Positions 10,596 through 48,420 of a stretch of DNA of 64,000 bases are shown one piece after another. Made by a program: the position numbers and the translations under genes. The stretch comes from Bacteroidota bacterium (GTDB taxonomy: Bacteria > Bacteroidota > Bacteroidia > UKL13-3). Below the pieces are notes generated by a model. It was not told the DNA's origin. It saw only the letters and a program-made list of their open reading frames with translations, and made no database searches. Numbering within the stretch: the first letter of the stretch is position 1; the number at the start of each line of letters is the position of its first letter. The stretch is from contig JAIYAT010000025.1 of NCBI GenBank assembly GCA_027488905.1, forward strand, positions 14,139 through 78,138. The letters run 5' to 3'.

Positions 10596-10670
10596 TTTTG
10601 AAGAGTTGCAAAAGTATAGAAAATATTAGTTTTGACAAGTAATCTTTGAACCAATACAAAAAACCAATCC

Positions 10671-12444: not shown

Positions 12445-12474
12445 CAAATATATGAGGTCTATTTAAATTTGCAA
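12445..12474 (-). promoter_or_regulatory. Bacteroidota sigma-A type promoter for tRNA-Pro
   Basis: Minus strand reads TTG-N19-TATATTTG, an exact match to TTG-N19-TAnnTTTG. The -7 box ends about 22 nt upstream of the tRNA 5' end. Confidence 0.75.
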
Positions 12475-12596
12475 GTATTTTTATGAAAAAGTTTGTTAAT
12501 GCTCATAATTAACCAGAAAAAGATACCCATAAGTGGGTATATATAAATCTTTGGTGAGTCGGATTTTTGAACCCAATAATATTTAAAACATTTTTT

Positions 12597-16262: not shown

Positions 16263-18866
16263 ATGACTAAGGACCTGCTCAATAATTACAAATTTCGTGA
16301 CCTTAAAATTTTTGGTTCAACCGAATGGCTAGCCAATAACGAAAAAAAGTATAGACTTGTCTTTGATGAGTCTGAATGCTCGTTTATCTATTGTGAGCTT
16401 TCATTTTTTAACAAACTTTTTGATGAAAATGATTGGGAGGTTAACATCAACCTAAAATGTGTGAACGACGAAGATGGTTCTATCATTTGTAATTTAACCG
16501 CAAACAGATCCATCACAAAAGATGAGAATATCGTTTTTGTGCGGGAAGGCTGGGGTGTTAAAAACCCTGGGAACTACTGGAAAAAAGGCGTTTACCGTTG
16601 GGAAGCTTGGATTGATGGCGTGTTTGTGGCCGAAAGATTATTTTATATAATAGACCTTGGCGTGGTTTCAGATACCGTAAATCCTTTCTTTAATATTACT
16701 AAAATTAAATTATTTGAAGGCCCAGACACCATGCTAGATAAGCCTCAAAGGAAATATTATTCTGTGTTTGGTAGTGAAGAAACGCGCTACGTTTGGCTCG
16801 AATTAGAAATGGAAAACATCATTTCAGAGGTGCCTGTTTGGCCTTGCGAATTAAATTTCCTTTTTCATACACACACTGGCCAACTCAAAGGTTCTATAGA
16901 TAAATTATTGTTTGTTGAAACCCGAGAACAAAAATTTGAGTGTGCCATAGGTTGGGGCAATGAACTTAAAGGCACTTGGGGAATAGATTCTTATACCATT
17001 TCTGTAGTATTTATGGACCAAGTAATTGCTACCATTGCATTTGAAGTAGGTCCAGAATTTAAAGAACCTGTGGTGGTTGTGCCAAAAGCAAAACCTCGTG
17101 AGTTACCAACACCTACAGTTGCTGGCGAAGAAAGTATCGAAGAAGTGCTTAATGAATTAGATGCACTCATTGGATTATCTGCCATAAAAAAGAAAGTTAA
17201 AGAATATACTACCTACCTTAACTTTTTAAAGATTAGAAAAGAAAAAGGATTTGATGACAGTGAAAAAATCAACCTTCATGCGGTTTTCACTGGTAATCCA
17301 GGAACGGGTAAAACTACTGTAGCCAAAATGTTAGGCAAAATTTACCATCAAATGGGGTTATTGAGTAAAGGTCATGTAGTGGAAGTAGACCGTGGTGATT
17401 TAGTTGCAGAATATATTGGACAAACTGCCCCAAAAACCAAAGAGGTTATTAAAAAGGCTAAAGGTGGAATTCTCTTTATTGATGAAGCCTACGCACTTGC
17501 CAGAAAGAATGATGATTCGAAAGATTTTGGAAAAGAAGCCATCGAAATTTTACTCAAAGAAATGAGCGATGGGGGAGGCGATTTGGCTGTGATTGTGGCT
17601 GGATATCCAAGTGAAATGAACAGCTTTTTAGAATCTAATCCTGGCATGCGTTCTAGGTTTAGCATGTTCTATGAATTTGCAGATTATTTGCCGCAAGAAT
17701 TAATGCAAATTGCTGAGTTTACCATGGAAAAAAGAGGCGTTAAGCTCAGTGAGTCTGCTAATGATTACCTCTATAAAATGTTAGTAGATGCTTACCGTGG
17801 CAGAGACAATATGTTTGGAAACGCTAGGTATGTTAATACTGTTATAGATGAAAGCAAAATGAACATGGGCTTGCGCATTATGACTAACGTAAATCCTTCG
17901 GCGCTTAACAAAGATGAGTTGTCTACCATTAACAAGGAAGATATTCAAAGAATATTTGAAGGCAAGGAAAAAGGTTACGCAGATATTCCTGTGGATGAAG
18001 ACTTGCTCAAACAAGCCTTAAATACTTTGCATAACATGATTGGCCTAGATGCCGTAAAAACAGAGATTGATGAGTTGGTTAAATTGGTTAGATTCTATAG
18101 GGAAATTGGTAAAGATGTGCGCCAAAGTTTTTCTTTACATGCTGTTTTTACTGGTAATCCTGGAACCGGAAAAACCACAGTGGCCCGAATTCTCGCACAG
18201 ATTTATAAAGCATTAGGAATTTTAGAACGTGGTAACTTAGTAGAATGTGATCGCCAAGGATTAGTAGGTGCATATGTGGGTCAAACTGCCATTAAAACAG
18301 CAGAGGTTTTGGATAGGGCGCAAGGTGGTGTTTTGTTTATAGACGAAGCTTATGCCTTGAGTGAAGGCGGTGAAAACGATTTTGGTAAGGAAGCCATTGA
18401 AACCATTTTGAAAAGAATGGAAGATAAGCGTGGATCTTTTGTAGTAATTGTAGCGGGTTATACAGAAAACATGCGCAGATTCTTAGAAAGTAATCCTGGT
18501 TTACACTCTCGTTTTGATAGGGAACTTAAGTTCGAAGATTATGATGCAAAACAATTGTTCGACATCACCTTAAAAATGCTTCATTCTAATTCTGTAAAGC
18601 CTGATGAAGCTGCGGCGGCGCATTTAAGTAAGTACCTTGAGTTTATCCATCAGAACAGAAATCAATATTTTGGGAACGCCAGAAATGTGAGAAAAGTGAT
18701 TGAGGAAACCATTAAAAATCAACACCTCAGGTTGGCAAAACTGCCTTCAGAACAACGTACCATTGAAATGATTAATACCATTTTATTTGAGGATGTGGAA
18801 GAATTTAAAATTGAAGACAAGCCAAATTCAGGTCCAAGAAGTATAGGCTTTAAACAATCGTCTTAA
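16263..18866 (+). CDS. AAA+ ATPase with two tandem CbxX/SpoVK-type modules and a duplicated N-terminal domain of unknown function
   Basis: 867 aa. Walker A GNPGTGKTT and Walker B (I/V)LFIDEAY each occur twice (around residues 345 and 625). Both modules show the CbxX-like context LHAVFTGNPGTGKTTVA...AGY...FLESNPG(M/L)(R/H)SRF. The first roughly 290 aa form two similar modules of about 130 aa. Confidence 0.85.
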   Translation: MTKDLLNNYKFRDLKIFGSTEWLANNEKKYRLVFDESECSFIYCELSFFNKLFDENDWEVNINLKCVNDEDGSIICNLTANRSITKDENIVFVREGWGVKNPGNYWKKGVYRWEAWIDGVFVAERLFYIIDLGVVSDTVNPFFNITKIKLFEGPDTMLDKPQRKYYSVFGSEETRYVWLELEMENIISEVPVWPCELNFLFHTHTGQLKGSIDKLLFVETREQKFECAIGWGNELKGTWGIDSYTISVVFMDQVIATIAFEVGPEFKEPVVVVPKAKPRELPTPTVAGEESIEEVLNELDALIGLSAIKKKVKEYTTYLNFLKIRKEKGFDDSEKINLHAVFTGNPGTGKTTVAKMLGKIYHQMGLLSKGHVVEVDRGDLVAEYIGQTAPKTKEVIKKAKGGILFIDEAYALARKNDDSKDFGKEAIEILLKEMSDGGGDLAVIVAGYPSEMNSFLESNPGMRSRFSMFYEFADYLPQELMQIAEFTMEKRGVKLSESANDYLYKMLVDAYRGRDNMFGNARYVNTVIDESKMNMGLRIMTNVNPSALNKDELSTINKEDIQRIFEGKEKGYADIPVDEDLLKQALNTLHNMIGLDAVKTEIDELVKLVRFYREIGKDVRQSFSLHAVFTGNPGTGKTTVARILAQIYKALGILERGNLVECDRQGLVGAYVGQTAIKTAEVLDRAQGGVLFIDEAYALSEGGENDFGKEAIETILKRMEDKRGSFVVIVAGYTENMRRFLESNPGLHSRFDRELKFEDYDAKQLFDITLKMLHSNSVKPDEAAAAHLSKYLEFIHQNRNQYFGNARNVRKVIEETIKNQHLRLAKLPSEQRTIEMINTILFEDVEEFKIEDKPNSGPRSIGFKQSS

Positions 18867-19942
18867 GCGTTAAATACGCAGGTTTCCACGGTAAGGCCTG
18901 GTCCAAAACCTGCAGCAAAAACTTTTTGCTGTGGGTTATAATCTGGCTGTTGTAATATTTTGTTGAGTACATGTAATAAAGTGGTACTGCTAAGGTTGCC
19001 CACTTCTTTTAGTACTTCATAAGAATGTCTCAAAGGGGTTTCGGTTTGAACCGAATTCGACTGAAGTATATTTGAAATGCCATCCACTATTTTTCTTCCA
19101 CCAGGGTGAATGGCCCAATGCTGAATATCCTTAAAATCACAAGAAAGATGTTGCAAGGCATCTTGAATGATAGTTCCAAGGCCTTCTTCAATCAACTGTG
19201 GAATATAAGCGCTTAGGGTCATTAAGAAGCCATCTTCATGAATATGCCAAGCCATGTCTGCTTTGCCTTTGTAAATTACTTTGGAATAAAAGTTGCTAAA
19301 TTTAAAATAAGCTTGTTCGGGAGGTTTAGTACTTATGATACATGCTGCTGCGCCATCTCCAAACAGGAGATTAGCAGCCATGATATCCGTGCTTTTTTGT
19401 TGATTGAAATGCAAGGTGCAAAGCTCCACCGATACCACCAAAACCCTTGAATCTTCGCTTGAGTTGCAAATGGCGTCTGCCATTTTAAAGGCATGGAACA
19501 AAGCATAACAACCCATAAAATTTACAGATGTTCGAGGCGTGTTGGGAGATAGGTTCAATGCTTGCAATAGCATTAAATCTAATCCAGGAGCTGCCATTCC
19601 GGTGCAAGAAACTGTAATTAAATGGGTAATTTGTTGTTCTTGAATTGCCCTTTTAGAAGCGGCGGCTGCAAGGTTTGGCGCATGTTCAAAATAGGTAGCC
19701 ATTCTTTTAGAAATAGGAACCTCTTTACCCAACTCAAAAAATCCTTCATCGGCATTTTGGTTCAAGCCAAAATCTTTTAACACACTATACCGGTGCTGTA
19801 TACCGCTTCGCCCATACATTAAACTAAGTTTTTGTGCCTCTTTTGGTTCAAACCGATAACAACTGAGCATGTAAGAAAGCAATTGCTCTTGCGAGTATTT
19901 ATTTTCTGGAAAGGCAATGCCAATATTAGAAAGGTAGCTCAT
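18863..19942 (-). CDS. type III polyketide synthase (chalcone/stilbene synthase superfamily)
   Basis: 359 aa with a Cys-His-Asn triad context: VSCTGMAAPGLD, WAIHPGGRKIVD, EVGNLSSTTLLHVL. Confidence 0.88.
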   Translation of the reverse strand: MSYLSNIGIAFPENKYSQEQLLSYMLSCYRFEPKEAQKLSLMYGRSGIQHRYSVLKDFGLNQNADEGFFELGKEVPISKRMATYFEHAPNLAAAASKRAIQEQQITHLITVSCTGMAAPGLDLMLLQALNLSPNTPRTSVNFMGCYALFHAFKMADAICNSSEDSRVLVVSVELCTLHFNQQKSTDIMAANLLFGDGAAACIISTKPPEQAYFKFSNFYSKVIYKGKADMAWHIHEDGFLMTLSAYIPQLIEEGLGTIIQDALQHLSCDFKDIQHWAIHPGGRKIVDGISNILQSNSVQTETPLRHSYEVLKEVGNLSSTTLLHVLNKILQQPDYNPQQKVFAAGFGPGLTVETCVFNA

Positions 19943-21650: not shown

Positions 21651-23665
21651 TGTTTAAACTTAGAACATATTTTTGTAAATTATTGATTGTTGTTATTTGC
21701 CAATTTTCCGCAATAGAGGGAAAGGCTATAGCACAAGATTCTATTTCTATTAAGCTTCAACAGGCAACGTCATTGGTTTATGTTAATCCAACACTTGCCG
21801 AATCCCAATTGTTGGAGGTACTTGCTGCGAGCGAGGAACACAAAGAATTCATTACTTGGTGTGAAGCCGCTAAGCAATTGGCAATTCTCCAGATTAATTC
21901 AGGAAGATTTGCCCAAGCTGCTAGCGATCTGCAAAAGGCAGTGCAGATTTCTGAGCAATGGAATCTACAACTTTACCATGCCCACTTTAAATATTTATTG
22001 GGGAATTCTTATCATGCGCAAGGAAGATTTTCTTTGGCGGTTGAGAATTATTTAGCAGCGTTAAGGTATTTTGAATCGGCTAAGGTTGAAACAGGTTTGT
22101 TAAATACCTATACCTCTTTGGCAGATGTTTATAGCAGACAAAATAATTTTAGCAAGGCCATAGAGTTTAACCTAAAAGCCATAAAGTTATTTGAGCAAAG
22201 AAAAGATAGGTTTAGGTTATTGAGCTCTTATGAACAAGTTGGTCTTTGGTATGCTCGGCAAGGTCAAGTAAAGAAGGCTGAAGATGCTTACAAAAAGGCT
22301 TTGAACCTGTATAAAGAATTAGGAAATAAGGCAGGTATAGCCGCCACCTACATTAATATGGGAGATTTAAGTTTTGAACTTAAGTCTTACACATTAGCAG
22401 TGGAGCAATATTCCTTTGCAAACAACATATCAAATGGGTTAAAAATTACACCTTTACAAACCCGTAGTTTACTTGGCTTGGCTAAGTCACATGCTAGGTT
22501 AAAAGACTACGAACTAGCTGCAACTGAGTATAGAAAAGTAACTAACCTAGCCAAAGAAACTGGCATGAAAATAGAGTTGGAAGAGGCTTATGAAGGATTG
22601 GCAGATTTATACCGTTCACTAAACGATAAACAAACCTCAAAAGCATATCAAAGTTTAAGCAACGAAATTAAAGACTCTTTGTTCAATGATTCAATTCTGA
22701 GAAGAACGTCTGATTTGCAATTGCATTATGAAGCAGAAAAAAAGCAAGCAGAAATAGAAATTTTCAAGAAGGAAGATGAAATAAAAGCCATGCAATTGAG
22801 GCAAACCAATCAGGTGAAGAATTTCTTTATTGCTTTGTCTGTATTGTTAGTGCTGCTCATCTTTTTGTTTGTTTATTTCATTTCTGAGAATCGAAAAATA
22901 AACAAACAACTTAAGCGAGGTTTAACCGAATTGGAGATTAAGAATCAAGAAATATCCATTCAAAAAGAACAATTAAGTCAGCTTAATCAAGTGAAAGATC
23001 GCTTTTTCTCCATTATCTCGCACGATTTAAGAAACAATCTTACCACCATGAAATTGTACTTTGATTTGGTGAGCAATCCTTCTTATGAGGCCAGTTCGCA
23101 ACAGGAGTTTGGTAAGGAAGTAGCGGCATCGGTTCAAAACACCATCGATTTACTCGAGAACTTACTCGTTTGGGCCAGTGGGCAAATAAAGGGGGTTCGG
23201 GTTGAACCAAAGAAAGTTAACCTGTATGCTTTGGCTGAAGAAAATATTGGCATGCTGAGAACCATGGCCATTCAAAAAAATATTTCTTTACACAACGAAA
23301 CTGAGCAAGATGCATTTTTGTATGCCGATGCAAATATGGTGAACCTAGTTTTAAGAAATTTGCTATCTAATGCCTTAAAGTTTACTAAAGAAGGTGGAGA
23401 AGTAAGTATTCTGTCTGAAGAGTTTGATACTTACCATCAAATATCAGTAATTGATAATGGTGTTGGAATTGATGTTCAAAAGTTAGAATCGCTTTTTACC
23501 GCACACATGAATGTGAGTACCCAAGGCACTGCAAATGAAAAGGGAACTGGTTTGGGGTTGATGCTTTGTAAAGACTTTACAGAGAAAAATGGCGGCAAGA
23601 TTTGGGTAGAAAGTGAGGCAGGTAAAGGCTCTAGTTTTATGTTAACCTTTCCTAAATTTCAATAG
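21650..23665 (+). CDS. TPR-repeat sensor histidine kinase (HisKA plus HATPase_c)
   Basis: 671 aa. Signal peptide, multiple TPR units, a coiled coil, one TM (FFIALSVLLVLLIFLFVYFI), H-box FFSIISHDLRNNL and G-boxes DNGVGI / GTGLGL. GTG start overlaps the regulator stop. Confidence 0.9.
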   Translation: MFKLRTYFCKLLIVVICQFSAIEGKAIAQDSISIKLQQATSLVYVNPTLAESQLLEVLAASEEHKEFITWCEAAKQLAILQINSGRFAQAASDLQKAVQISEQWNLQLYHAHFKYLLGNSYHAQGRFSLAVENYLAALRYFESAKVETGLLNTYTSLADVYSRQNNFSKAIEFNLKAIKLFEQRKDRFRLLSSYEQVGLWYARQGQVKKAEDAYKKALNLYKELGNKAGIAATYINMGDLSFELKSYTLAVEQYSFANNISNGLKITPLQTRSLLGLAKSHARLKDYELAATEYRKVTNLAKETGMKIELEEAYEGLADLYRSLNDKQTSKAYQSLSNEIKDSLFNDSILRRTSDLQLHYEAEKKQAEIEIFKKEDEIKAMQLRQTNQVKNFFIALSVLLVLLIFLFVYFISENRKINKQLKRGLTELEIKNQEISIQKEQLSQLNQVKDRFFSIISHDLRNNLTTMKLYFDLVSNPSYEASSQQEFGKEVAASVQNTIDLLENLLVWASGQIKGVRVEPKKVNLYALAEENIGMLRTMAIQKNISLHNETEQDAFLYADANMVNLVLRNLLSNALKFTKEGGEVSILSEEFDTYHQISVIDNGVGIDVQKLESLFTAHMNVSTQGTANEKGTGLGLMLCKDFTEKNGGKIWVESEAGKGSSFMLTFPKFQ

Positions 23666-25787: not shown

Positions 25788-26579
25788 ATGAAGCGAAGTC
25801 TTCTTTTGATTAGTTTTTTGAGTCTTGCTTTTATAAGCAAGACTCAATCTTTAAAAGAGTTTACCTACCTAAAAGACAGGTATCACCTAGAAAGCTATTT
25901 TAATTTTTCTGCCATGCTGGCAAATATTGATAATCCTGCTGCGCCAAACAATCGGCAAGCGCATAAACAAAGTGTGCTATTTATCGACTTATACTACCTC
26001 AAACCTAATTTTAATAAGGGTGGTTTGAACCGACGCAGCGACTATAAATTATTACCAGATATTTTTTGGCTATTCAAACAAATTACCGAAAAGGATGAAA
26101 GCAAATTGAATGCTAGTCAGGGTAGTTCCATTTCTGGTGGAATAATTGGTTGGCATCAATGGACCTGGAATCTCACTGCAAAACCACAGCAATGCATAAG
26201 CATAGGATTAACTATTAGTGACTATTTTATTGGTTCAATTTATTTAGATAGCACTCAGTCGAAAATAGTTTTACACGAACCTCAAGGTTGGCAAATAGGA
26301 GCTGGGCCGGTGATAGGAATTTCTCAAAGGCTTTCTAATTCATTTATTTTAATTGGTTCAACCGCCTATGTTCCTTCCTTTTTAAAGCCAGTAAGTGTTA
26401 GTTATGCAAAAGAAGATGAGAACTATCCTAAACCGCATTTTTTGCATTTGAATTTAACACTTATGAGTAAGTGGGGTTTATTTGCAGAAGGTCAACTTGT
26501 ACAACTCATCAATAATGGGAACTTGCCTAATACTACTAGACGTCTCGATCTGAAACTTGGGTTTGCATTTGTACTATAA
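25788..26579 (+). CDS. secreted protein of unknown function
   Basis: 263 aa with signal peptide MKRSLLLISFLSLAFISKTQS. Starts 5 nt after the preceding gene. Confidence 0.6.
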   Translation: MKRSLLLISFLSLAFISKTQSLKEFTYLKDRYHLESYFNFSAMLANIDNPAAPNNRQAHKQSVLFIDLYYLKPNFNKGGLNRRSDYKLLPDIFWLFKQITEKDESKLNASQGSSISGGIIGWHQWTWNLTAKPQQCISIGLTISDYFIGSIYLDSTQSKIVLHEPQGWQIGAGPVIGISQRLSNSFILIGSTAYVPSFLKPVSVSYAKEDENYPKPHFLHLNLTLMSKWGLFAEGQLVQLINNGNLPNTTRRLDLKLGFAFVL

Positions 26580-28467
26580 TAGGTAAATAAAGCTTAAGCT
26601 CTGTTCCATGCCCAGGGCTGCTATTGATAATAAGTTGCATGCCATTTTCATTAGCCCTGCTTTCCATATTACGCAAGCCATAGCCTGCAGCATAATGATC
26701 TTCTAATTTAAAACCCTTACCGTTATCCCTCATGATAAGGTGAAGGTTGTTTTCTTGAACCTTCACCTCAATGAGCAAATGACTACAATAAGCATATTTA
26801 ATAGCATTAGTAATTCCTTCTTTTAAAATCCTATAAACATGCAAGCTTTGAGCTGGTGATAAGATTATAGAAGGGATAGTTTCTGGCAAAACTAATTGTA
26901 TTCTACCCACCTCTAAAATACTTTTGGTGTTGTCTGTAAGCCTTATAAATAGCTGTTCTAAGGTGCTTTGAGTTTGATGAATAGCCCAAATTGTATCACG
27001 CAAACTTCTCATTGCAGACCGCATTTTTTCTGCAAGGTCGTTCAATCGCTCTCTTTGTATAATATTGGTTTCTGCATAGGCCCTCAAATCCATTTCTGAA
27101 GCAATCCATGTAAGCTCTGCACCAAGATTATCATGTAAATCCCTTGATATTCTAACTCTCTCTTCGTTCATGGCCAATTGGTTTTGTTGAGCCAATTGCC
27201 TTTTCTTTTGCTGATAATATAACCAATAAGCACCAAATGCAATCATTAATATAAATGCTACTCCAGTGCTTAGTAAAAGCATATTGGTACGTCTTACTAA
27301 AATTACTTGAGTTTGTAAAAGCGTTCGGTCTTTATTTAGCGTTTCGTTTTTATGTCGCTCTAATTGATATTTTGCGCTATAGTTCTGAACCAAAGTGTTG
27401 GTCTCTAAATTATAAACACTATCTGCGCAAGACTTGTGCAACTCTAGGAAATAAAGGGCTTTGCTTGGATTCTTATTTAGTTTATGCCATTCATAAAGGT
27501 CAAATAAAATATTTTGAGTTTGATCTAGAAGTTTGTTCTTTCGGGCAAAATACAACGCTTCTTCAAAGTTTTCTAGTGCTTTCTTTTGTTGGTTCAAGTC
27601 GCTAAAACAAAAACCCAAATTACGATGAACATTGGCTAAACCGGGCTCGTCTCCTTGCTCTTCATATGCAGCTAAGGCTTTAGTATAATATTCTTTTCCT
27701 TCCTCTGGCCTATTAGTTAACCTGCATAAAACGCCAAAAGATTCGTAATACTTTGCTCTTTCATTCGCATAAGCTTTCAGTTCCATGTAAGGCTTTACAG
27801 TCATCATTAACAACTCAGCCTTTCTTGTATCTCCAGCTTTTCGGAATAAAATAGATTGGTTAACCTTTGCAAGAGCCTCACTTCTTTCATCGCCAATTGC
27901 ATGCGCCAATTCTCTTGACTTTGTATACCATTGCATGGCTTCTTCATTGGCTTTGTATTTTTCAAAAAGGGTACCCATGTTATTGCACATTTGAACTAAA
28001 TGCGCCGTATCAGATAATTTCTCATAAATAAAACATGCCTTGCCATAAGCTATTATGCTTTGTTTATAATTGCCAATTTCATAATAGGCCTGGCCAATTT
28101 TTGCCAAGTTTGCTGCCGCCAATGAAGATTTGTTTGCCTTCATTCGTATGGCATATGCACGTTGGTTCAAACTAATAACGGAATCATATTTACCAATTAC
28201 TAAATAGGGCATGCTCAAATCGTTCAACGCCTGTGCAAGCAATAATGAGTCGGGTTGAACCAAAGCATCTTTTACTGCTAAGCCTCCATAATGTGCTGCT
28301 AACCCTGGGTCCTCATACATTAATTGGTAACTTAATTCTCCTAAGGTTTTAATGCGGGGCGCACCTTTTTGAATGTAAACTAGATTTTTTAATGAATCTA
28401 AATTTTGCGCTTGCGCCCCAAAAAAACTGAGGGTAAATAAGATGAATTGTAAAAGATGTTTGCGCAT
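26536..28467 (-). CDS. TPR-repeat sensor histidine kinase (HisKA_3 plus HATPase_c)
   Basis: Signal peptide, TPR repeats, one TM, H-box RISRDLHDNLGAEL, and ATPase boxes EGITNAIKYA and DNGKGF..GYGLRNMESR. ATG at 28467; the ORF-track start at 28476 is TTG. Confidence 0.9.
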   Translation of the reverse strand: MRKHLLQFILFTLSFFGAQAQNLDSLKNLVYIQKGAPRIKTLGELSYQLMYEDPGLAAHYGGLAVKDALVQPDSLLLAQALNDLSMPYLVIGKYDSVISLNQRAYAIRMKANKSSLAAANLAKIGQAYYEIGNYKQSIIAYGKACFIYEKLSDTAHLVQMCNNMGTLFEKYKANEEAMQWYTKSRELAHAIGDERSEALAKVNQSILFRKAGDTRKAELLMMTVKPYMELKAYANERAKYYESFGVLCRLTNRPEEGKEYYTKALAAYEEQGDEPGLANVHRNLGFCFSDLNQQKKALENFEEALYFARKNKLLDQTQNILFDLYEWHKLNKNPSKALYFLELHKSCADSVYNLETNTLVQNYSAKYQLERHKNETLNKDRTLLQTQVILVRRTNMLLLSTGVAFILMIAFGAYWLYYQQKKRQLAQQNQLAMNEERVRISRDLHDNLGAELTWIASEMDLRAYAETNIIQRERLNDLAEKMRSAMRSLRDTIWAIHQTQSTLEQLFIRLTDNTKSILEVGRIQLVLPETIPSIILSPAQSLHVYRILKEGITNAIKYAYCSHLLIEVKVQENNLHLIMRDNGKGFKLEDHYAAGYGLRNMESRANENGMQLIINSSPGHGTELKLYLPIIVQMQTQVSDRDV

Positions 28468-30811: not shown

Positions 30812-32368
30812 TTAAAATCTTTTTCTCAAGAAAATATTTAGTCCAATGCTCCAAGGTCTTTGACCAATCCAGTTTTCAGCGCTTACCATGTTATTCATTC
30901 CTATCCTAAGTTGTGGCATTAATCCAACATCCAACATTGTATTCATTTGCCAAGTTACCGCCGGAGCAACATTTAAAAACCACATATTTTTGTAGGTAGG
31001 AAATGACGCTTTGTCACTAACAACCATCAAGCCAACACAGCTTTGATCAGGCAAGTAGGCATTTACTAGGTTAAGCTTTCCAAAACTTGCTCCCAGGTTC
31101 AGATCGAATCCTAAATTCTGCCCACGAAATAGCTTATAGCCAATCCAAACTGGGATTTCTGTAAAGCTGTATTTATTTTTTGTAGAATATGTTGCTCCAA
31201 CCACAATAGAATCCGAATTGTGTAGGTAAAAGTTTTCTCCATAACCTCTAGCGGGCACAGAATCAGCATTGGTTAAATTGTACTTAACATCTTGGGTAAA
31301 AGATAAAATTCCAACGCCTGCGCGCACATATAGCTTTTCTGTAATTGCGTATTCACCTGAAAGGTTGGCGCTAAAATCAAATTCGGGGACTTCAATTTCT
31401 TTTCTAAGGGCCAAAGTTTTATCAAGGTTTTGGCTGCTATTGCTTGGTGCCATTAATTGCATAAAACTAAGGTGCATGCCAATATTTGCAACAATCGAAA
31501 GTTTTGATAAATCTAGGTCGCTTTCCATATAAACATTGGATTTTGCAATTGGCGCTGCTAACTGTGAGTCAAGTAAAGATTTTATAGGAGTGGTAGTTTT
31601 TTCTGAAACAATCTCTCTTCCAGCGCTTTGATTTTCGGCAGGTGCCGCCACAGAAGGCAAAGGCGTTGGAATTTGGTTTGCTGCCATAACCTGCTGCGTT
31701 TCTATTGGTTTATTAATTGGGGCCTCTGTTTTAGTTGCCTCTTTAGAAACTTTTGTAAGCTCCGATGATTTTGTTTTTTTGCTGTAGTTAGCAAATTTAG
31801 CCTGAGAAATTTTGGATTTAACTTTTGAACTATTTTCAGTTTGGTTCAACCCGAATGCGGCTTTATTACCTTTGTTTTGAGGAACAACGCTTGAACTAGT
31901 AAGTGCTTTTTCAGTAGTTTGATTTTGAGATTTGTTTTTTGCACCAGTGTTTTTTAAATCCTTGTTTTCGAAATTAGAAGCAGTCCTGCGCTTAAGTTTA
32001 GGTTTTTCTTCTAAGGTGTTAAATTTCTCGGTTTCGGTTTGAACCAAAGCCTCGTTTGCAATATTTTGATTAAATTGATATAGGCTTATACCTCCAGCAA
32101 TTGCAGTAATAAGCAAAATGCTAGACAGCCAAATCCATCCAAAGCGTTTTTTCTTTTCAGGAAGTTGCGCTTCTAGTTGTTCCCAAGTTTCTTCTTTTGG
32201 ATCAACAGTGAAATCCTGCAATTTATTTTGCAATTTAGGTTCAAAGGTATCTGAACCAATATTTTGAGCAATCTTGTCCCATAAGGCATCTGAAGGTTTG
32301 AACTCCATCCCATCTAGGCTCTCTTGCAGTTGCTGTTCAAAACTATTTTGCTTCTTCAAAGGGTTCAT
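30812..32368 (-). CDS. anti-sigma-like membrane protein with a low-complexity linker and a C-terminal beta-barrel-like domain
   Basis: 518 aa. Roughly 80 aa cytoplasmic N-terminus, a TM (FGWIWLSSILLITAIAGGISLY), a Ser/Lys/Asn/Thr-rich linker and a beta-rich C-terminus ending in ...FLRKRF. Overlaps the upstream ECF sigma gene by 26 nt. Confidence 0.65.
   Translation of the reverse strand: MNPLKKQNSFEQQLQESLDGMEFKPSDALWDKIAQNIGSDTFEPKLQNKLQDFTVDPKEETWEQLEAQLPEKKKRFGWIWLSSILLITAIAGGISLYQFNQNIANEALVQTETEKFNTLEEKPKLKRRTASNFENKDLKNTGAKNKSQNQTTEKALTSSSVVPQNKGNKAAFGLNQTENSSKVKSKISQAKFANYSKKTKSSELTKVSKEATKTEAPINKPIETQQVMAANQIPTPLPSVAAPAENQSAGREIVSEKTTTPIKSLLDSQLAAPIAKSNVYMESDLDLSKLSIVANIGMHLSFMQLMAPSNSSQNLDKTLALRKEIEVPEFDFSANLSGEYAITEKLYVRAGVGILSFTQDVKYNLTNADSVPARGYGENFYLHNSDSIVVGATYSTKNKYSFTEIPVWIGYKLFRGQNLGFDLNLGASFGKLNLVNAYLPDQSCVGLMVVSDKASFPTYKNMWFLNVAPAVTWQMNTMLDVGLMPQLRIGMNNMVSAENWIGQRPWSIGLNIFLRKRF
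32030..32050 (+). repeat. 21-nt block GGTTTCGGTTTGAACCAAAGC, identical to 55358..55378
   Basis: Exact identity counted base by base. Lies inside the anti-sigma-like gene, where it encodes ALVQTET. Confidence 0.95.
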
Positions 32369-37424: not shown

Positions 37425-37434
37425 GGTTTGAACC
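37425..37434 (+). repeat. intergenic copy of the over-represented word GGTTTGAACC
   Basis: Exact 10-mer, 6 nt after the stop codon at 37416-37418. Confidence 0.95.
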
Positions 37435-37500
37435 AATATCCATATAATTTATCTGTAACATAAATTGACCTATATTCGTTATTGAAAAAATTTAAACGCT

Positions 37501-41324: not shown

Positions 41325-41336
41325 AAACTATTGCTT

Positions 41337-41346
41337 GGTTCAAACC
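41337..41346 (-). repeat. intergenic copy of the over-represented word GGTTTGAACC (reads GGTTCAAACC on the plus strand)
   Basis: Exact 10-mer, 12 nt after the stop at 41324. Confidence 0.95.
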
Positions 41347-43037: not shown

Positions 43038-43045
43038 AATGTTTC

Positions 43046-43055
43046 GGTTTGAACC
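43046..43055 (+). repeat. intergenic copy of the over-represented word GGTTTGAACC
   Basis: Exact 10-mer with flank TTTC. Lies between the scoB start (43037) and the stop of the T9SS cargo gene (43105). Confidence 0.95.
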
Positions 43056-43104
43056 TAGGCAAATGTATGCAGCAAAGGATAAGAATGCAAAAAGTAACTA
43101 TGAA

Positions 43105-45594
43105 TTATGGATTGAAAATGAATTTAAGTGTAATTGTTTTTTCTCCACTTAATTTAATAAAATAAATTCCTGATTGTTTAAGCTCTTTAGAGAGGTCAAA
43201 TTGGGTTTTGGTTTGATCCAAAGAACCTGATGTGATTGACTTTCCAAGGATATCTGTTATTTCATAAGATTGAAAGGAGTTGTTGTTAGAAATGATTTCA
43301 AACTCGCCCTTGTTAGGGTTTGGAACAAGCATTGGAATCGAATTTGAACCCTTGTTGTTTTCGCCTATCCCAACTGGAACAACCCAAAGGGCTTCCTCTA
43401 AAAAGATGGTTTCTCCACTAAATGTATTTGGAGGATATTGATCAATTCTCAAGTCATATGTGCCAGTTAAGCTATCTCCGGCTTCCACTTCAAATTCAAG
43501 TATGGTGTCATTTAACACCTTGTAAGAAATAGTTTTTAAGTTGTTTTCATAAACAAAATCTTTTCTGAAGTTAAATTGAATTTCTTTGAAGTAGGTCCAG
43601 TTTGAGGCATCTGACTGCAAGGTGAATTTGGTTCTAGAGCCTTTGGCTATCCAGTTTGGAGAAAATAGCGTAATGGAAGGTGAATAGACCATATTCATTA
43701 AAAAATCGTTTCCAATGAATCCATCAATTTCATTATAAAAAATAGGGTCAGCATTACCTCCTCTAAATTGTATGCATGTGTCGTTTATAACAACTGGGCT
43801 GTGGTAATAACTTCCAAGCCTAATTTCTTTTGCTTGTGAAAAATGAGTATTTTTAAACCAACAAGTATACAAGCGAGTTTCTCCACCGCCATCATAGGCT
43901 ACCGTTTTTGGAGATATCTCTACGGCACGGGAGACATTATTCATCACGTAAATGGCTTCTTTTTGTAAATGCCACTTTTGGGTGAGCGTATCGTAAATTT
44001 CTGCATCATAGTAACCTGGTATAGCAAGGCTATCCACATTAAATACTACTGTTCCATAAGATCTATAGTCTGGATGCACCTTAATGCTTATGCTAGAGTC
44101 TATTGTGCCATTTCGTAAAAATCTTACAGGGGCTAAATACATTTTAAACCTATTTGCTAATGAAGGCAAAATTAAGGTAAGAATTTTTTTGCTTGAATCT
44201 ATTCGACCAATATTTAAAAGGTGGTTTGGCCTTAATTCAATTATTAATGGAAGGAATTTGCTAATAAATAATGCATTTTCAAGGATAATCTCGGGTTTAT
44301 TTACTTGAATAATCTTGAGGTCGAAAATTCCTTCTTTAGAAAGTGTGTCTAAATGTCCCAATAAATATTTTCCACCTTTATGTATGATTATTGAATCAAT
44401 AAAAATGCTCGAATTCTCTGGAAACTCAAACCTAATTCCATTAGTATCTAAAGGATTTTTTGAGTCATCTATGCTAATTTCAAACGGTAAGCCAGGCATG
44501 GAGGCTCCTGATCTTAACATTAAAACAGGGGGCCTATAAATGTATAATTGATTGAGTATCCTTAAATCTGACAATTGAGGATGTTTAAAAACCAAGTCAT
44601 AACTACCAGATGGTAAGCTACTAGGAATTACTAAGGAAAAATAAAAAGTAGCTTGATGGTATCCAAATGATGGATTTGAAAAATATACCGAATCAAAAAT
44701 TGCTGAATCTGAAAGGAACGTTTGGGGGATTATTTCACCATTATTATTGGCCAATTTAAGAGAAGCTTGTAAAATATGTTGTAAAGTGTCGGGGTTAAAG
44801 TATGGTGTTTGCTTAATTGTGACACTAACCTTGCTGAAACTATTTTGGCCGCTGTATATGAATGGTTGGTTTACAGATGAAAAATACTCAATTTTTGAGT
44901 AGCCAAATTGCTTATTTAAAAAGAAAATGCCTGTGAAATTATGCTTAACCCCATCGCGTTTATTTCTATAACCTATTTGAAAGGCGCCTGAACTCCCTTT
45001 GGACGGCGAGGGGAAATTTATAATTGCTAATGTATCTGAGATAACTGTTACGGAATCTAACACATTAAATGCATTTATTCCATTGGTAGAATAGCCAAAC
45101 TCTGTTTCAGTTTCGAGAAAATGAGTCCCCAATCCAACTAGTTTTATTTGAACAAAGTCGCCAATTGAGTCTGAATTTATCATAGGGTTATTATAAATGC
45201 TTCGAATTTTGAATTGGTCTGGATTTAATTTAACTATTTTAAAATTACAACGGCCAATAGTTCTTCCTTCAAGACGTTCGTTATCAATGTTTATGATTGA
45301 TATTATTGTGTTTGCGCTTACCTTGTTTAGTGCTATTTTTAGCTGTAAGGTAGAGTCGTTAATTATTTTGAATGAACTATGGCTATTTAAACCGTTTCCG
45401 AAATCTGTTAAGAAATTAGCAGAGGTTCTAGCATTTTGACTGAAATTAGCATTTCCAAAATATAGGTATACTAAATTGGTGTCACCTTCATACACCCAAT
45501 CTCTGCTCATTCCTTTTAGGTATTGTGCCTTTAAGTTTTGGATGGCAAAACTGCAAAGCAAAGCACAAATAATAAAATGTTTTAAGTTTCTCAT
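43105..45594 (-). CDS. large secreted protein of unknown function with a T9SS C-terminal sorting domain
   Basis: 829 aa. Signal peptide MRNLKHFIICALLCSFAIQNLKAQ. The last roughly 80 aa (VPNPNKGEFEI...GIYFIKL...) match the Por/T9SS CTD pattern. Confidence 0.75.
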   Translation of the reverse strand: MRNLKHFIICALLCSFAIQNLKAQYLKGMSRDWVYEGDTNLVYLYFGNANFSQNARTSANFLTDFGNGLNSHSSFKIINDSTLQLKIALNKVSANTIISIINIDNERLEGRTIGRCNFKIVKLNPDQFKIRSIYNNPMINSDSIGDFVQIKLVGLGTHFLETETEFGYSTNGINAFNVLDSVTVISDTLAIINFPSPSKGSSGAFQIGYRNKRDGVKHNFTGIFFLNKQFGYSKIEYFSSVNQPFIYSGQNSFSKVSVTIKQTPYFNPDTLQHILQASLKLANNNGEIIPQTFLSDSAIFDSVYFSNPSFGYHQATFYFSLVIPSSLPSGSYDLVFKHPQLSDLRILNQLYIYRPPVLMLRSGASMPGLPFEISIDDSKNPLDTNGIRFEFPENSSIFIDSIIIHKGGKYLLGHLDTLSKEGIFDLKIIQVNKPEIILENALFISKFLPLIIELRPNHLLNIGRIDSSKKILTLILPSLANRFKMYLAPVRFLRNGTIDSSISIKVHPDYRSYGTVVFNVDSLAIPGYYDAEIYDTLTQKWHLQKEAIYVMNNVSRAVEISPKTVAYDGGGETRLYTCWFKNTHFSQAKEIRLGSYYHSPVVINDTCIQFRGGNADPIFYNEIDGFIGNDFLMNMVYSPSITLFSPNWIAKGSRTKFTLQSDASNWTYFKEIQFNFRKDFVYENNLKTISYKVLNDTILEFEVEAGDSLTGTYDLRIDQYPPNTFSGETIFLEEALWVVPVGIGENNKGSNSIPMLVPNPNKGEFEIISNNNSFQSYEITDILGKSITSGSLDQTKTQFDLSKELKQSGIYFIKLSGEKTITLKFIFNP

Positions 45595-46137: not shown

Positions 46138-48309
46138 ATGAATACCCCTTTTTTTTATTTTGACAGAAAAATACTTCTAGTGCTTTTCCTCCTTTTGTGG
46201 GGAGAATCACTCTTTTCACAAAGTAAAACAATTCTAGAAATTAAAGGTAAGCTTGCCAGTCGAAATACCCATGATACCTCAACTGTAAATTTATTAAACG
46301 AATTGGCCTTTGAATTTAGAAATTCGTATCCTGATAGTACCATTTTTTATGCAAATCAGTCTCTTGCAATTTCCAATGAGTTAAATTATAAAATAGGGCA
46401 AGCAAATGCTTATAAACAATTAGCAATCGGAAGCTTTTATCAATCTAATGGAAAACTAGCAAAGTTATATAATCGTTCGGCACTTAAATTATTCAAGGAA
46501 TCTAATGATAAAAAGGGAGAGGCCGCAGTTCTAAATAATTTAGGGATGATTTTTCACAATGAAGGTGATTTTGAAAAAGCACTTTTTCATTACAATCAAA
46601 GTTTGCAAATCCGTAAGGCCATTTATGATGCTAAAGGAATGGGGGATAGCTACAATAATATAGGAAACATCTATTTAGACAAAGGGAATTTCAAAGAAGC
46701 CATTGAGCATTATTTTGAAGCACTTCAAATTAGAGAAGACAATAAAGATTCGGTTAGTATTGCAAATAGCTATGGAAGTATTGCTGGCGTTTACTTTTTG
46801 TTAGGAAAATATGAGGACGCCGAAAAAAATGCCAAGCGTGCTTTGACCATTCAACAGCTAATTGGTGAGCGAATTGGGTCAATACAAAGTAACATTGAAT
46901 TAGGAGGGATTTATCATCATAGGAAGCAGTACGATTCTGCTATTCAATATTTTAATTCTGCCTACCTTTTGGCAAAAGAAGCTGGAGATCAAGCAGACGA
47001 AATAGTTTGTTTGATAGATTTTGGGGAGGTATACAATGATAAAGGAATGCCTGATAGTGCTCTTTATTTTTTCGAATTAGCCATGCCCAAATGCATCAAG
47101 TTTGAAGACAAAATTGGTGTTGCATTTTGTGATATTGGTATTGCAAAGGCTAAATTGTTAAAGGGAGATTTACAAGGTAGTTTGCATCATTCTAGGCTGG
47201 GTTACGATGCTGCTTTTAAATTGCATAATAAAGTGCAAATTTTAGAAGCAAGTTCCCAGCTTGCTAAGGTTTTACAAAAATTAAGTAAGTTTCAGGAAGC
47301 AAATTTTTATTTGAATCAATCTATTATTTATAAGGATAGTTTGCAAATTGAAGAAAATGCAACAAGAACACACGAGTTAGAATTTAATTATCTTTTAGAG
47401 AAAAAACAGAATGAAATTACGCTATTAGAAAAAGATAATTCAATTCAAATTGCCAAAAGTAGGTTTCAGTATTCTATAACCATAGGATTACTTGTTATGA
47501 TTATGTTTTTAGCAATTTCTGTTTATATAATACAAAGATCAAGGGCGAATGAAATACAGGCTAAAGATTTGGTTACCCAACAAAAGCATGCAATTGAAAG
47601 GCAAGCCAAAGATTTAGAAGAACTTAATATCTATAAAAATAAAATTTTTTCCATCCTTTCCCATGATATTCGTAATCCTATTTCCTCTTTAAATCAAATT
47701 GTTGAGTTAATCAATGAAGACGTATTGACAATTAATGATTTAAACCACTTAAAGGATAGGCTTCATGGTCAATTGAAATCTATCAATATCCTGCTAGACA
47801 ATGTTTTAAATTGGAGTAAGAATCAGTTAGAAGGTGAGTTACTACCTAATAAAAAGGAAACAAATCTTACCCTTCTAGTGAATCAAAATATTACTTTATT
47901 TGAAGAGTTTTCGCAACAAAAGCAGCTTGTTCTTAACAATATGGTGCCTGATGATTTTATGGTTTGGGTTGACCCAAATCATTTGGATTTGGCTGTTAGA
48001 AATATTTTGTTTAATGCAATTAAATTTTCTTTCCAGAATGGAACCATAGAAATCAAAATAGAAAAAAAAGAAGGCGAAGTGTTTATCTCAATTTCCGATA
48101 ATGGGAAAGGTATGGATGACTTGGAGTTGGAATCACTTTTTTCATATAATAAGCAACCTGGAATTTATGGAACAAATGGGGAGCGAGGAGCAGGGATTGG
48201 CCTAATTTTGACAAAAGAATTTGTTAGTAAAAATGACGGAAAAATATTGGTTCAATCCAAAGTAAATGAAGGTTCTACCTTTACCTTGGTGTTTCCTGAT
48301 TTAGTATAA
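46138..48309 (+). CDS. TPR-repeat sensor histidine kinase (HisKA plus HATPase_c)
   Basis: 723 aa with the same architecture as 21650..23665: signal sequence, TPR units, coiled coil, TM, H-box FSILSHDIRNPI, and DNGKGM / GAGIGL. Confidence 0.9.
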   Translation: MNTPFFYFDRKILLVLFLLLWGESLFSQSKTILEIKGKLASRNTHDTSTVNLLNELAFEFRNSYPDSTIFYANQSLAISNELNYKIGQANAYKQLAIGSFYQSNGKLAKLYNRSALKLFKESNDKKGEAAVLNNLGMIFHNEGDFEKALFHYNQSLQIRKAIYDAKGMGDSYNNIGNIYLDKGNFKEAIEHYFEALQIREDNKDSVSIANSYGSIAGVYFLLGKYEDAEKNAKRALTIQQLIGERIGSIQSNIELGGIYHHRKQYDSAIQYFNSAYLLAKEAGDQADEIVCLIDFGEVYNDKGMPDSALYFFELAMPKCIKFEDKIGVAFCDIGIAKAKLLKGDLQGSLHHSRLGYDAAFKLHNKVQILEASSQLAKVLQKLSKFQEANFYLNQSIIYKDSLQIEENATRTHELEFNYLLEKKQNEITLLEKDNSIQIAKSRFQYSITIGLLVMIMFLAISVYIIQRSRANEIQAKDLVTQQKHAIERQAKDLEELNIYKNKIFSILSHDIRNPISSLNQIVELINEDVLTINDLNHLKDRLHGQLKSINILLDNVLNWSKNQLEGELLPNKKETNLTLLVNQNITLFEEFSQQKQLVLNNMVPDDFMVWVDPNHLDLAVRNILFNAIKFSFQNGTIEIKIEKKEGEVFISISDNGKGMDDLELESLFSYNKQPGIYGTNGERGAGIGLILTKEFVSKNDGKILVQSKVNEGSTFTLVFPDLV

Positions 48310-48321
48310 TTTGGGTTTTTC

Positions 48322-48331
48322 GGTTTGAACC
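48322..48331 (+). repeat. intergenic copy of the over-represented word GGTTTGAACC
   Basis: Exact 10-mer with flank TTTTTC, 12 nt after the kinase stop at 48309. Confidence 0.95.
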
Positions 48332-48420
48332 CACCCTAAATGCTTAAAATCACCTTTTTCCTTTCTTAAAGTTTGTTAATTTCGCTGCACGATTTTTATA
48401 AAATTATTAATTTTTATACC

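Follow-up and report, generated by a model that had tools for sequence, protein, structure and literature searches.

Why do two unrelated genes in this 64,000-nucleotide stretch of a Bacteroidota genome (the window, meaning the whole stretch analysed) share an identical block of 21 nucleotides? The sequence-only reading had noted that the 21-mer GGTTTCGGTTTGAACCAAAGC occurs at 32030-32050 in an anti-sigma-like gene and at 55358-55378 in a GreA-like gene, that a 16-mer from it recurs at 19037-19052 in a type III PKS gene, and that a variant, GGTTTCGGGTTGAACC, lies at 62637. All of these matches were recovered as described, and the 21-mer had 0 matches in 100 shuffles. The minus-strand peptides are EALVQTETEK in the gene at 30812-32368, GALVQTETTL in that at 55193-55642 and SNSVQTETPL in the PKS; the variant site reads LNLVQPETN* in the gene at 62631-63095 (minus strand). 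The "CBM48-like" label given to the last of these genes lacks Pfam support, and for the "GreA-like" label a Pfam match does exist but is sub-threshold. As detailed below, both copies of the 21-mer are perfect examples of a DNA word that is specific to the lineage and spread through the genome.

Within the window, a 9-bp core, TTGGTTCAA, sits in a consensus of ~18 bp, TTGGTTCAAaCCgAAAcc, with the layout TTGGTTCAA-a-CC-g-AAA-cc. The core is present in 30 copies in 64 kb (19 on the + strand and 11 on the - strand, or ~1 per 2 kb), compared to 1.47 ± 1.12 copies (maximum of 5) in dinucleotide shuffles of the window, so that the identity is indeed far beyond chance. Markov models of orders 0-4 predicted ~0.8-4 core copies on both strands together, and the enrichment of the core over chance is about 10-20-fold. 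This enrichment extends to one-off core variants at some positions, with substitutions allowed chiefly at positions 2, 5, and 7. A position weight matrix yielded 67 matches in the window versus 11 in a reversed-sequence null, and the density including degenerate copies is ~1 per kb. The matrix information resides in positions 1-9 and 11-12 and is weaker at positions 13-18; the extension agrees with the consensus at 4.6 of 9 positions, against a background of 2.1/9. The conserved unit is the 18-bp TTGGTTCAAACCGAAACC rather than the 21 nt first proposed, the extra GCT not being kept (the orthologue in the related locus L089 has CCT). The suggestion of a two-part recognition site found little backing: most information lies in the 9-bp core and in the CC of positions 11-12, and the other half, AAACC, is degenerate. 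Similarity between copies stops after about 20-24 nt and no longer repeat is present, contrary to what would be seen if the block were part of a longer shared mobile sequence. Mimicry of a tRNA T-arm by GGTTCAAACC, considered by eye, was rejected, because the stem it would form contains a G-G mismatch and because within genes the word occurs on both strands. The individual copies are listed in Table 1.

Table 1. Copies of the word in the window, in order of position; peptides are those read through the site, and L numbers designate loci of relatives.
Positions	Strand	Sequence	Host gene and remarks
3999..4007	+	exact core	antisense in mreB, VFEPMG; via synonymous codon choice
5005..5022	-	exact core	purH, conserved peptide GVLVQDR
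5065..5082	-	TTGGTTCAAACCGGAAGC	purH, IILVQTGS; relatives have K, Q or A for Val
6516..6533	+	TAGGTTCAAACCGAGATA	near-core; sister strain L007 has exact core TTGGTTCAAACCGAA
8627..8644	-	TTGGTTCAAACCGTACCC	ribH; L022 has identical 18 nt
9403..9411	+	exact core	antisense, IEPK
9623..9631	+	exact core	antisense, FEPN
10646..10654	-	exact core	intergenic, upstream of recF
10996..11004	+	exact core	recF, sense frame 1, IGS
11226..11243	+	TTGGTTCAAGCCGGAAAC	recF, LVQAGN; relatives LSRSG or LSKSG
11385..11402	+	TTGGATCAAACCGAATCT	near-core, recF
13213..13221	+	exact core	sister strain L007 has TTGTTTCAG at same site
14543..14551	+	exact core	
16312..16320	+	exact core	
19037..19054	-	TCGGTTCAAACCGAAACC	type III PKS, SVQTET; one core mismatch, perfect extension
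19757..19774	+	TTGGTTCAAGCCAAAATC	antisense in PKS, GLNQN
19843..19860	+	TTGGTTCAAACCGATAAC	antisense in PKS, FEPK
23193..23210	-	TTGGTTCAACCCGAACCC	antisense in histidine kinase gene
26230..26238	+	exact core	
26353..26361	+	exact core	
27589..27597	+	exact core	
28162..28170	+	exact core	
28246..28263	-	TTGGTTCAACCCGACTCA	ALVQPD
31841..31858	+	TTGGTTCAACCCGAATGC	second anti-sigma-like linker copy, antisense FGLNQTE; 15 nt kept in L089, flanks diverge
32030..32047	-	TTGGTTCAAACCGAAACC	perfect 18-bp word; anti-sigma-like gene, LVQTET; 18/18 nt kept in L089, both flanks diverged
37428..37436	-	exact core	intergenic
41335..41343	+	exact core	intergenic
43040..43057	-	TAGGTTCAAACCGAAACA	near-core, strong extension
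43204..43221	-	TTGGATCAAACCAAAACC	near-core, strong extension
48247..48255	+	exact core	
48316..48333	-	TGGGTTCAAACCGAAAAA	near-core
52228..52236	-	exact core	
53504..53521	+	TTGGTTCAAACCGACACC	DUF4340 gene, LVQTDT
55358..55375	-	perfect 18-bp word	GreA-like gene, LVQTET
56640..56657	+	TTGGGTCAAGCCGAAAAA	near-core
56834..56851	+	TCGGTTCAAATCGAAATC	near-core
57930..57938	+	exact core	
60241..60258	-	TTGGATCAAACCCAAAAA	near-core
62637..62654	-	TTGGTTCAACCCGAAACC	3' end of 154-aa ORF, LVQPET; LVQP kept in L086 orthologue

The placement of the copies matches that of coding DNA, with 27 of the 30 cores inside genes and a coding fraction of the window of 93%; no association with promoters was seen. 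Site by site, 16 copies are sense and 12 antisense (a recount puts 7 of the latter in the EP frame), and 3 lie between genes, a total of 31 versus 30 cores that leaves one assignment off by one. The word occupies four of the six reading frames on both strands and is read as LVQ, xGS, EP, or LNQ; the only frames left unused are those that contain a stop (TGA) or a codon for Trp. There is a mild tendency for sites to come in pairs 60-230 bp apart (<250 bp), with a marginal P of about 0.03-0.05. Because four frames and both strands are used, the word is selected as DNA and not as a shared peptide. A shared peptide would lie in one frame on one strand and be conserved in all hosts; here, conservation of the peptide is confined to the GreA-like family and does not extend to the anti-sigma-like linker or to the PKS.

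Protein-preserving nulls support the same conclusion, which the sequence-only reading had anticipated. Shuffling of synonymous codons, with proteins and codon usage kept, left 4.7 ± 1.9 genic copies compared to the 27 observed (~6-fold), and shuffling of codon order left 1.7. LVQ tripeptides are written as TTGGTTCAA (TTG-GTT-CAA) in 10 of 13 cases, where codon usage predicts ~9%. In related genomes, identical codons were found at 78% of conserved amino acids inside the word versus 51% outside (Fisher 2e-8), and a codon-type-controlled comparison gave 73 of 90 codons identical versus 50.5 expected (z = 5.2). The smaller divergence of the window from sister strain L007 (4.9% difference) yielded 2 word differences versus about 5 expected, which is not significant. 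When eight sites (in mreB, purH, ribH, recF, and two neighbouring genes) were compared with their orthologues, no insertions were seen. The word arises via point substitution at existing positions, and individual sites are then kept across species. Its maintenance takes place at the level of DNA, independently of strand, direction of transcription, and frame.

The host proteins accommodate the word in different ways. The proposal that it is tolerated in variable loops held for two of the three original genes. In the hypervariable linker of the anti-sigma-like protein, the 18/18-nt block is kept in L089 at a protein identity of 58% with fully diverged flanks, and in the PKS the VQTE segment is a 4-residue insertion in an alignment against 15 homologues, none of them a close orthologue. 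A distant homologue on the P0148 contig carries LVQTE at another linker position. The proposal did not hold for the GreA-like gene, in whose family a G[A/S]LVQT motif is conserved down to 39% identity and is encoded in a word-free genome as GCA TTG GTA CAA ACT; here the peptide is old and the word was produced through synonymous codon choice. Where the protein is constrained, synonymous changes make the word, and where it is free, amino-acid replacements or small indels do so.

The distribution of the word was followed in ~64 kb of the source genome and ~21-kb loci of relatives. Its density is 0.47-0.60 per kb in the window, L007, and L022, and 0.19-0.25 per kb in L020, L021, L086, and L089; only the 7-mer core is enriched in L023, L087, and L090, and no enrichment was found in L091, L088, or the outgroup loci L008-L013 and L015. 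L091 belongs to a complete 3.28-Mb genome, a word-free relative with the same gene order. L007 represents the nearest genome, a MAG labelled "Chitinophaga pinensis" that was probably mislabelled by its submitter. Among 41 low-GC metagenome contigs, mostly unrelated to the region, extra cores occurred at 0.19/kb versus 0.03/kb in chance matches. Over-representation of the USS/DUS type (a 9-12-bp word at ~1 per kb) was found in the window and likewise in L007, in L022, and in the contigs from metagenomes. The word extends genome-wide and is limited to a clade of uncultured, Flavobacteriales-like freshwater Bacteroidota. Among the MAGs of relatives, CAMDHZ01 and GCA_021740845.1 are word-rich, GCA_027487835.1 is intermediate, and GCA_040960315.1 and GCA_002256395.1 have a weak signal or the candidate dialect. 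IMG/VR gave 2 matches to the 18-mer with no extra cores nearby, about chance level for an assumed collection size of ~90 Gb. A lineage dialect is possible in L023, where the one-base variant TTGGGTTCAA has 4 copies versus 0.13 expected in a single 21-kb locus and L087 has none; the candidate dialect form of the word in the relative is TGGGTTCAA. No competence genes were detected by Pfam in the window or among the annotated genes of the relatives' ~21-kb loci. Our literature search on Bacteroidota found no description of the word, its matches being only primers or unrelated papers.

Our best reading is that the word behind the 21-mer is a DNA-uptake-signal-like sequence or the product of some other strand-blind, sequence-specific drive. 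As its cause we favor, with a probability of roughly 45%, biased DNA uptake in natural transformation with subsequent homologous recombination, the molecular drive that underlies the USS of Haemophilus and the DUS of Neisseria. The cause is most likely a sequence-specific step that operates on double-stranded DNA and favors the spread of the word, and biased uptake is the best-known example of such a process. A surface or periplasmic DNA receptor would prefer word-bearing fragments, e.g., those with TTGGTTCAAaCCGAAA, and better-matching alleles would therefore be imported and fixed more often, with proteins absorbing the word where LVQ, xGS, EP, or LNQ is tolerated. The mild pairing of sites is neither predicted nor forbidden by an uptake model. 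We suggest, tentatively, that the word could be a genuine DNA-uptake or self-recognition sequence with lineage dialects in an abundant clade of uncultured freshwater Bacteroidota. To our knowledge, classical uptake sequences are restricted to two proteobacterial families, with their origin and receptors still debated, and such a sequence would be the first outside the Proteobacteria.

Comparison with known systems shows both likenesses and differences. In Pasteurellaceae, the USS consists of a ~30-bp consensus built around the 9-bp core AAGTGCGGT. Like the USS, the word combines a 9-bp core with a weaker flanking consensus at a density on the order of one per 1-2 kb, occurs in both orientations, mostly in genes and in protein-tolerated frames, arises from point substitutions, and is retained at orthologous sites in related species. 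Unlike the USS, it has another sequence in another phylum, its extension is a one-sided C/A-rich 3' tail instead of an AT-rich flank on either side, terminator copies in inverted pairs were not observed, and it is enriched about 10-20-fold versus the hundreds for the USS. Classical USS and DUS enrichment is roughly 100-fold or more, and the lower value here was counted against uptake. Whereas inverted repeats and terminators between genes are rich in DUS, 90% of the word copies are intragenic, matching the coding fraction. The likeness to both systems is one of sequence statistics; for USS and DUS an uptake preference is known. The DUS of Neisseriaceae is a 12-mer, AT-GCCGTCTGAA, with the receptor ComP and dialects (PMC3630211). 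The word resembles it in being clade-specific, graded in density, and strand-blind, with a candidate one-base dialect. HIP1 of cyanobacteria (GCGATCGC) is also a highly iterated short word across the coding DNA of one phylum-level group, but it is a palindromic octamer recognised by methyltransferases, whereas our word is asymmetric, longer, and narrow in clade. What HIP1 does is debated, and it has been proposed to be linked to horizontal transfer (bioRxiv 10.64898/2026.06.24.733823).

Two other explanations are contradicted by the data above. Like Chi and KOPS, the word is short, over-represented on the chromosome, and mostly in genes, and its 5' end is G/T-rich, so a polar signal could be imagined, either for recombination (Chi, read by RecBCD/AddAB) or for segregation (a guide for FtsK/SpoIIIE of the KOPS/SRS type); the exact core is moreover split 14:7 in favor of the G-rich strand right of the GC-skew minimum of the window. 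Chi and KOPS are, however, strongly co-oriented with replication (at least ~75%). On the same axis, the relaxed pattern is split 34:25 and the extended pattern 7:10, the opposite mild skew of the C-rich extended form being what base composition predicts. On 24 independent contigs, the core is split 22:33 relative to the G-rich strand, rejecting a 75% skew with p = 4e-8, and window and contigs combined give 36:40. Replication polarity is absent and the word is orientation-independent; a polar signal is therefore largely refuted and very improbable, and we know of no Chi or KOPS as long as an 18-bp consensus. Barely credible, and refuted as a general explanation, is a protein-level or compositional artefact, i.e., the peptide (A)LVQTET, codon-pair bias, or remnants of mobile elements or MITEs. 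The conserved GALVQT of the GreA-like family and copies such as purH GVLVQDR, found also in outgroups where peptide and codon usage coincide, would agree with it; the four frames on both strands and the 27 copies versus 4.7 with proteins and codon usage kept do not. The word is not a REP, MITE, or mobile repeat, since similarity ends at ~20-24 nt, 27 of 30 copies are intragenic, and orthologous positions lack insertions.

Alternatively, the word may be a site that some abundant sequence-specific protein inside the cell binds or modifies, preserved by ordinary selection and not by uptake bias. The protein might be a nucleoid-associated or chromosome-organising factor, the reader of a defence "self" marker, or an enzyme with an asymmetric methyltransferase or phosphorothioation target. 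Conservation of individual sites and of the full 18-bp block across species, the strand-blind occurrence, a tolerance mainly at positions 2, 5, and 7 as at a protein-DNA interface, and the mild pairing at 60-230 bp are consistent with such a protein, and the GTTC/GAAC in the core would suit a modification target. The nucleoid and segregation sites parS, matS, SBS, and NBS are, however, palindromic and number tens per genome, unlike a word at ~1 per 2 kb; restriction-modification targets are usually avoided or neutral, unlike a word enriched 10-20-fold; no candidate protein was identified in the loci analysed, and the largely intragenic sites show no promoter association. We consider this explanation somewhat unlikely. 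A functionless by-product of context-specific mutation or repair bias, such as very-short-patch-like correction or biased gene conversion that would gradually turn near-matches into the word, would fit the origin by point substitutions at pre-existing positions, the enrichment of one-off variants at some positions, and the grading of density across the clade, but we judge it improbable. The repair biases known so far target methylation contexts of 4-6 bp, mostly palindromes, and have ~2-fold effects, unlike an asymmetric 18-bp consensus at 10-20-fold, and the perfect 18 nt in a hypervariable linker would demand a very long recognition footprint.

If biased uptake is indeed the cause, there would be sequence-selective natural transformation and a new DNA receptor in Bacteroidota, a phylum in which only a preference for own DNA has been reported so far, without an identified motif: natural competence is known from Riemerella species, and competition assays showed R. 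columbina to favor its own DNA, but no convincing uptake sequence was found (PMC7965970). An independent Bacteroidota case would put the molecular-drive model to a third test, in a phylogenetically remote lineage, and natural transformation with self-preference would be predicted in uncultured freshwater bacteria. Comparison of word-rich genomes with relatives of the same gene order that lack the word, the L091 genome among them, offers a handle for the receptor search, and in practice the word may serve as a marker with which to bin sequences of the clade and to recognise foreign DNA in them. Whatever its function, an 18-bp word inside hundreds of genes measurably constrains protein evolution, dictating the codons of LVQ and persisting in hypervariable linkers.

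The 21-mer GGTTTCGGTTTGAACCAAAGC occurs identically at two sites of the window and had zero matches among window shuffles; a 16-mer of this block is found again at a third site and the variant GGTTTCGGGTTGAACC at a fourth. The minus-strand readings of the four host ORFs are EALVQTETEK, GALVQTETTL, SNSVQTETPL, and LNLVQPETN*, and the sequence-only reading that had reported these blocks and peptides described them accurately. The same window searches returned eight to thirteen more near-copies of the block, which identifies these sites as the best instances of a more widespread word. By k-mer counting, the commonest 9-mer of the window is TTGGTTCAA (TTGAACCAA on the opposite strand), hereafter the core. 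It is present 30 times (19 on the plus strand and 11 on the minus strand), compared to 1.47 ± 1.12 expected from dinucleotide shuffles and ∼0.8 to 4, both strands summed, from Markov models of order 0 to 4. Alignment of the copies yielded a consensus with a 3′ extension, T-[T/c]-G-G-[T]-T-C-A-A-a-C-C-[g/a]-A-A-A-c-c, and copies agree with the extension at 4.6 of 9 positions (background, 2.1 of 9). One-base variants of the core are enriched at positions 2, 5, and 7 only. An iterated weight matrix detected 67 sites (about one per kb) versus 11 in a reversed-sequence null, and an independent repeat finder returned the word as the largest direct-repeat family in the window (11 copies of 20 nt). 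Information in the consensus is high at positions 1 to 9 and 11 to 12 and moderate at 13 to 18, a profile weakly consistent with the two-part recognition site suggested earlier. The full consensus is matched at 18/18 positions only by the two 21-mers, whose additional GCT (an Ala codon) is not kept in the orthologue of the clade member L089. Throughout the window, word copies tend to pair at distances of 60 to 230 bp in the same or opposite orientation, with 7 of 29 gaps being shorter than 250 bp (P about 0.03).

Positions of word copies, host genes, and other features (window coordinates unless a relative's locus is named)
Feature	Position	Strand	Remark
21-mer, anti-sigma-like gene	32030-32050
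21-mer, GreA-like gene	55358-55378
16-mer of the block, PKS gene	19037
Variant block, CBM48-like ORF	62637
Anti-sigma-like gene	30812-32368
PKS gene	18863-19942
CBM48-like ORF	62631-63095
Example pairs of word copies	5014/5074, 19757/19843, 26230/26353, 28162/28255, 31841/32039, 43049/43213
recF	10671-11771	+
tRNA-Pro	12348-12422	-
Switch in gene orientation	10000-12600
DnaA-box-like 9-mers	11843, 12950, 13112		three, weak
Length difference beside tRNA-Pro	12482-12518; L007 2769-3685		36 bp; ∼916 bp
ATTTGCTTTT	1560, 3305, 13736, 55902, 56248, 57503, 59271	+	none on -
GTCAGTTCGAGCG... repeat	L023 1-21527		six copies

Coding sequence accounts for 93% of the window, and 27 of the 30 cores lie within ORFs. 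Four frame classes are occupied: sense frame 0, which reads LVQ (10 copies), sense frame 1, which reads xGS (6 copies), and two antisense classes that read EP (7 copies on recounting) and LNQ (5 copies), with one assignment off by one because these counts total 28. The two frames that are devoid of copies would require a TGA stop or a Trp codon. When synonymous codons were shuffled such that each protein sequence and the codon usage were preserved, 4.7 ± 1.9 copies were obtained (maximum of 11 in 500 trials), and shuffling codon order within genes gave 1.7, compared to the 27 observed. Composition is rejected as the source of the word by these counts, and the excess over the synonymous shuffles strongly supports the earlier proposal of selection at the DNA level. 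Of the window's 13 LVQ tripeptides, 10 are written as TTG-GTT-CAA, whereas codon usage predicts ∼9%. These data indicate that the word acts at the DNA level, irrespective of strand, transcription direction, and reading frame, and that it has bent codon choice and amino acid sequence alike.

No insertions were found at eight window sites when compared with orthologues of shared gene order. In conserved peptides the word is attained through codon choice, as for VFEPMG of MreB, GVLVQDR of PurH, ILVQTVP of RibH, and YFEPNYP of an E1-dehydrogenase-like gene, and in variable proteins through amino acid replacement, as for IIL[V/K/Q/A]QTG of PurH and LVQAG (versus LSRSG) of RecF. When every orthologous codon of the window and the clade members was compared, conserved residues used the identical codon in 78% of cases within the word versus 51% outside (Fisher, 2 × 10−8), with equal amino acid identity within and outside the word. 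With codon type controlled, 73 of 90 codons were identical versus 50.5 expected (z = 5.2), including TTG (17 of 21 versus 7.9 expected) and GTT (15 of 18 versus 7.5 expected); with related genomes pooled, these counts lack full independence, yet the effect is both large and consistent. Two near-identical strains have 11 of 12 sites in common, a value that alone is not significant.

In the GreA-like family, G[A/S]LVQT is found family-wide to 39% identity (alignment A1); this motif is encoded by GCA TTG GTA CAA ACT in the word-free genome L088 and by TTG GTT CAA ACC GAA A.. in the window and in the related loci L086 and L087. In the anti-sigma-like protein, LVQTET opens the hypervariable linker that follows the transmembrane helix, and it is present in relatives of 59 to 98% identity and absent at ≤43% (alignment A2). 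L089 retains TTGGTTCAAACCGAAACC at 18/18 positions in this linker, with unrecognizable flanks on both sides, and likewise retains 15 nt of a second anti-sigma-like copy (antisense, FGLNQ). In the PKS, VQTE aligns as a four-residue insertion compared to 15 homologues of 40 to 52% identity (alignment A3). The idea that the word is tolerated in variable loops thus applies to the linker and the PKS insertion, but not to the family-wide motif of the GreA-like gene. The anti-sigma-like gene comes after an ECF sigma gene, and its product combines a conserved N-terminus, the helix and linker, and a C-terminal OMP β-barrel-like domain; one member of its cluster is annotated as RodZ by one source. The CBM48-like ORF gave zero Pfam matches. 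A library protein matching the PKS, P0171, has 4818 residues with 12 separate type III PKS-matching stretches, an unusual multi-copy architecture or possibly a fused gene call.

The window, from an uncultured member of Bacteroidota, has 36% GC and encodes T9SS sorting domains; exact matches to its proteins came from metagenome assemblies only, and the closest genome is the MAG of the sister strain L007 (95.7% nucleotide identity). Word density drops with rising distance from the window lineage, as scaled by PurH and by the GreA-like and anti-sigma-like homologues: 0.47 copies per kb in the window, 0.60 in L007, 0.51 in L022 (PurH, 76%), and 0.19 to 0.25 in the clade members L020, L021, L086, and L089. 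In L023 (GCA_040960315.1), L087, and L090 (GCA_002256395.1), the 7-mer GGTTCAA alone is enriched (16, 12, and 13 copies, respectively, versus ∼4–5 expected; PurH, 74% for L023 and L090). Enrichment is absent from L091 (PurH, 67%), a complete 3.28-Mb genome with the same gene order, from L088, which has a distant GreA-like homologue, and from the outgroups L008 to L013 and L015 (Flavobacterium, Avrilella, Crocinitomicaceae, and other MAGs). L023 favors TTGGGTTCAA (4 copies versus 0.13 expected) and has 9 copies of GGGTTCAA (1.07 expected); its form differs from that of the window at the tolerant position 2 and, judged from one locus, may be a one-base dialect. The k-mer statistics of L023 are dominated by another short repeat, GTCAGTTCGAGCG..., which resembles REP or MITE-type elements and is unrelated to the word. 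An exact 18-mer scan of JGI metagenomes yielded 60 contigs. The 41 low-GC contigs (239 kb total) possess extra cores at 0.19/kb, and their non-seed copies carry the same flanking consensus; the other 19, of high GC, have 0.03/kb and are apparent chance hits. Only a handful of the low-GC contigs are homologous to the window, so the word is genome-wide in the clade and not region-specific. IMG/VR contained two exact 18-mers without further cores nearby, roughly the chance level by an estimate that assumes a collection of ∼90 Gb. The word is clade-specific, has a long footprint of ∼18 bp, and is maintained over evolutionary time.

The minimum of the cumulative GC skew lies at ∼11 kb, by recF and tRNA-Pro, and gene orientation flips in the same region. 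The replication origin may be close by, although the search for DnaA-box-like 9-mers gave only three weak ones. The longer stretch of L007 beside tRNA-Pro points to a small insertion or deletion that separates the two strains at a tRNA. A second over-represented word, the strand-specific 10-mer ATTTGCTTTT, lies within ORFs at 7/7 sites and antisense to minus-strand genes at six of them.

Several known kinds of repeated sequence have defining features that the word lacks. Polar signals such as Chi and KOPS are rejected for want of a consistent strand skew: in the part of the window right of the GC-skew minimum, the exact core is distributed 14:7, the relaxed pattern 34:25, and the extended form 7:10, and cores of 24 independent contigs divide 22:33 with respect to the G-rich strand (75% skew rejected, p = 4 × 10−8). 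The C-rich extended form mildly favors the C-rich strand, as base composition predicts. Mobile elements, including the REP and MITE types, are rejected because similarity between copies never continues past ∼24 nt and the eight sites compared with orthologues show no insertions, and a peptide motif is rejected by the four frame classes on both strands. Two classes of explanation remain beside uptake, namely a site that is bound or modified inside the cell and kept by ordinary selection, and a long-context bias of repair or conversion. We rank uptake bias plus recombination, as for the USS of Haemophilus and the DUS of Neisseria, ahead of these at a probability of about 0.45, since to our knowledge it is the only established process that gives a ∼9-bp core with weaker flank, about one copy per 1 to 2 kb, both orientations, intragenic placement in frames favored according to what the proteins tolerate, conserved orthologous sites, and dialects.

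The word behaves like USS and DUS in its sequence statistics, and from selection at the DNA level we infer a candidate uptake signal, for which preferential uptake, an uptake apparatus, and a receptor would be the functional hallmarks. Word enrichment in Haemophilus and Neisseria is an order of magnitude above that seen here. No competence genes were found among the genes read in the window and the relatives' loci, and neither this word nor any uptake sequence was found described for Bacteroidota in the literature searched. Natural competence exists in Flavobacteriales; the preference of R. columbina for its own DNA is unexplained, and k-mer counting in that species gave only A-rich low-complexity words (PMC7965970). 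For this genome-wide, uptake-signal-like word, a putative role in uptake is plausible. If an uncultured freshwater clade of Bacteroidota had its own, independent USS-like system, this would be notable for specialists in transformation or genome evolution, and a comparison of word-rich genomes with word-free relatives of the same gene order would make the receptor question directly approachable.
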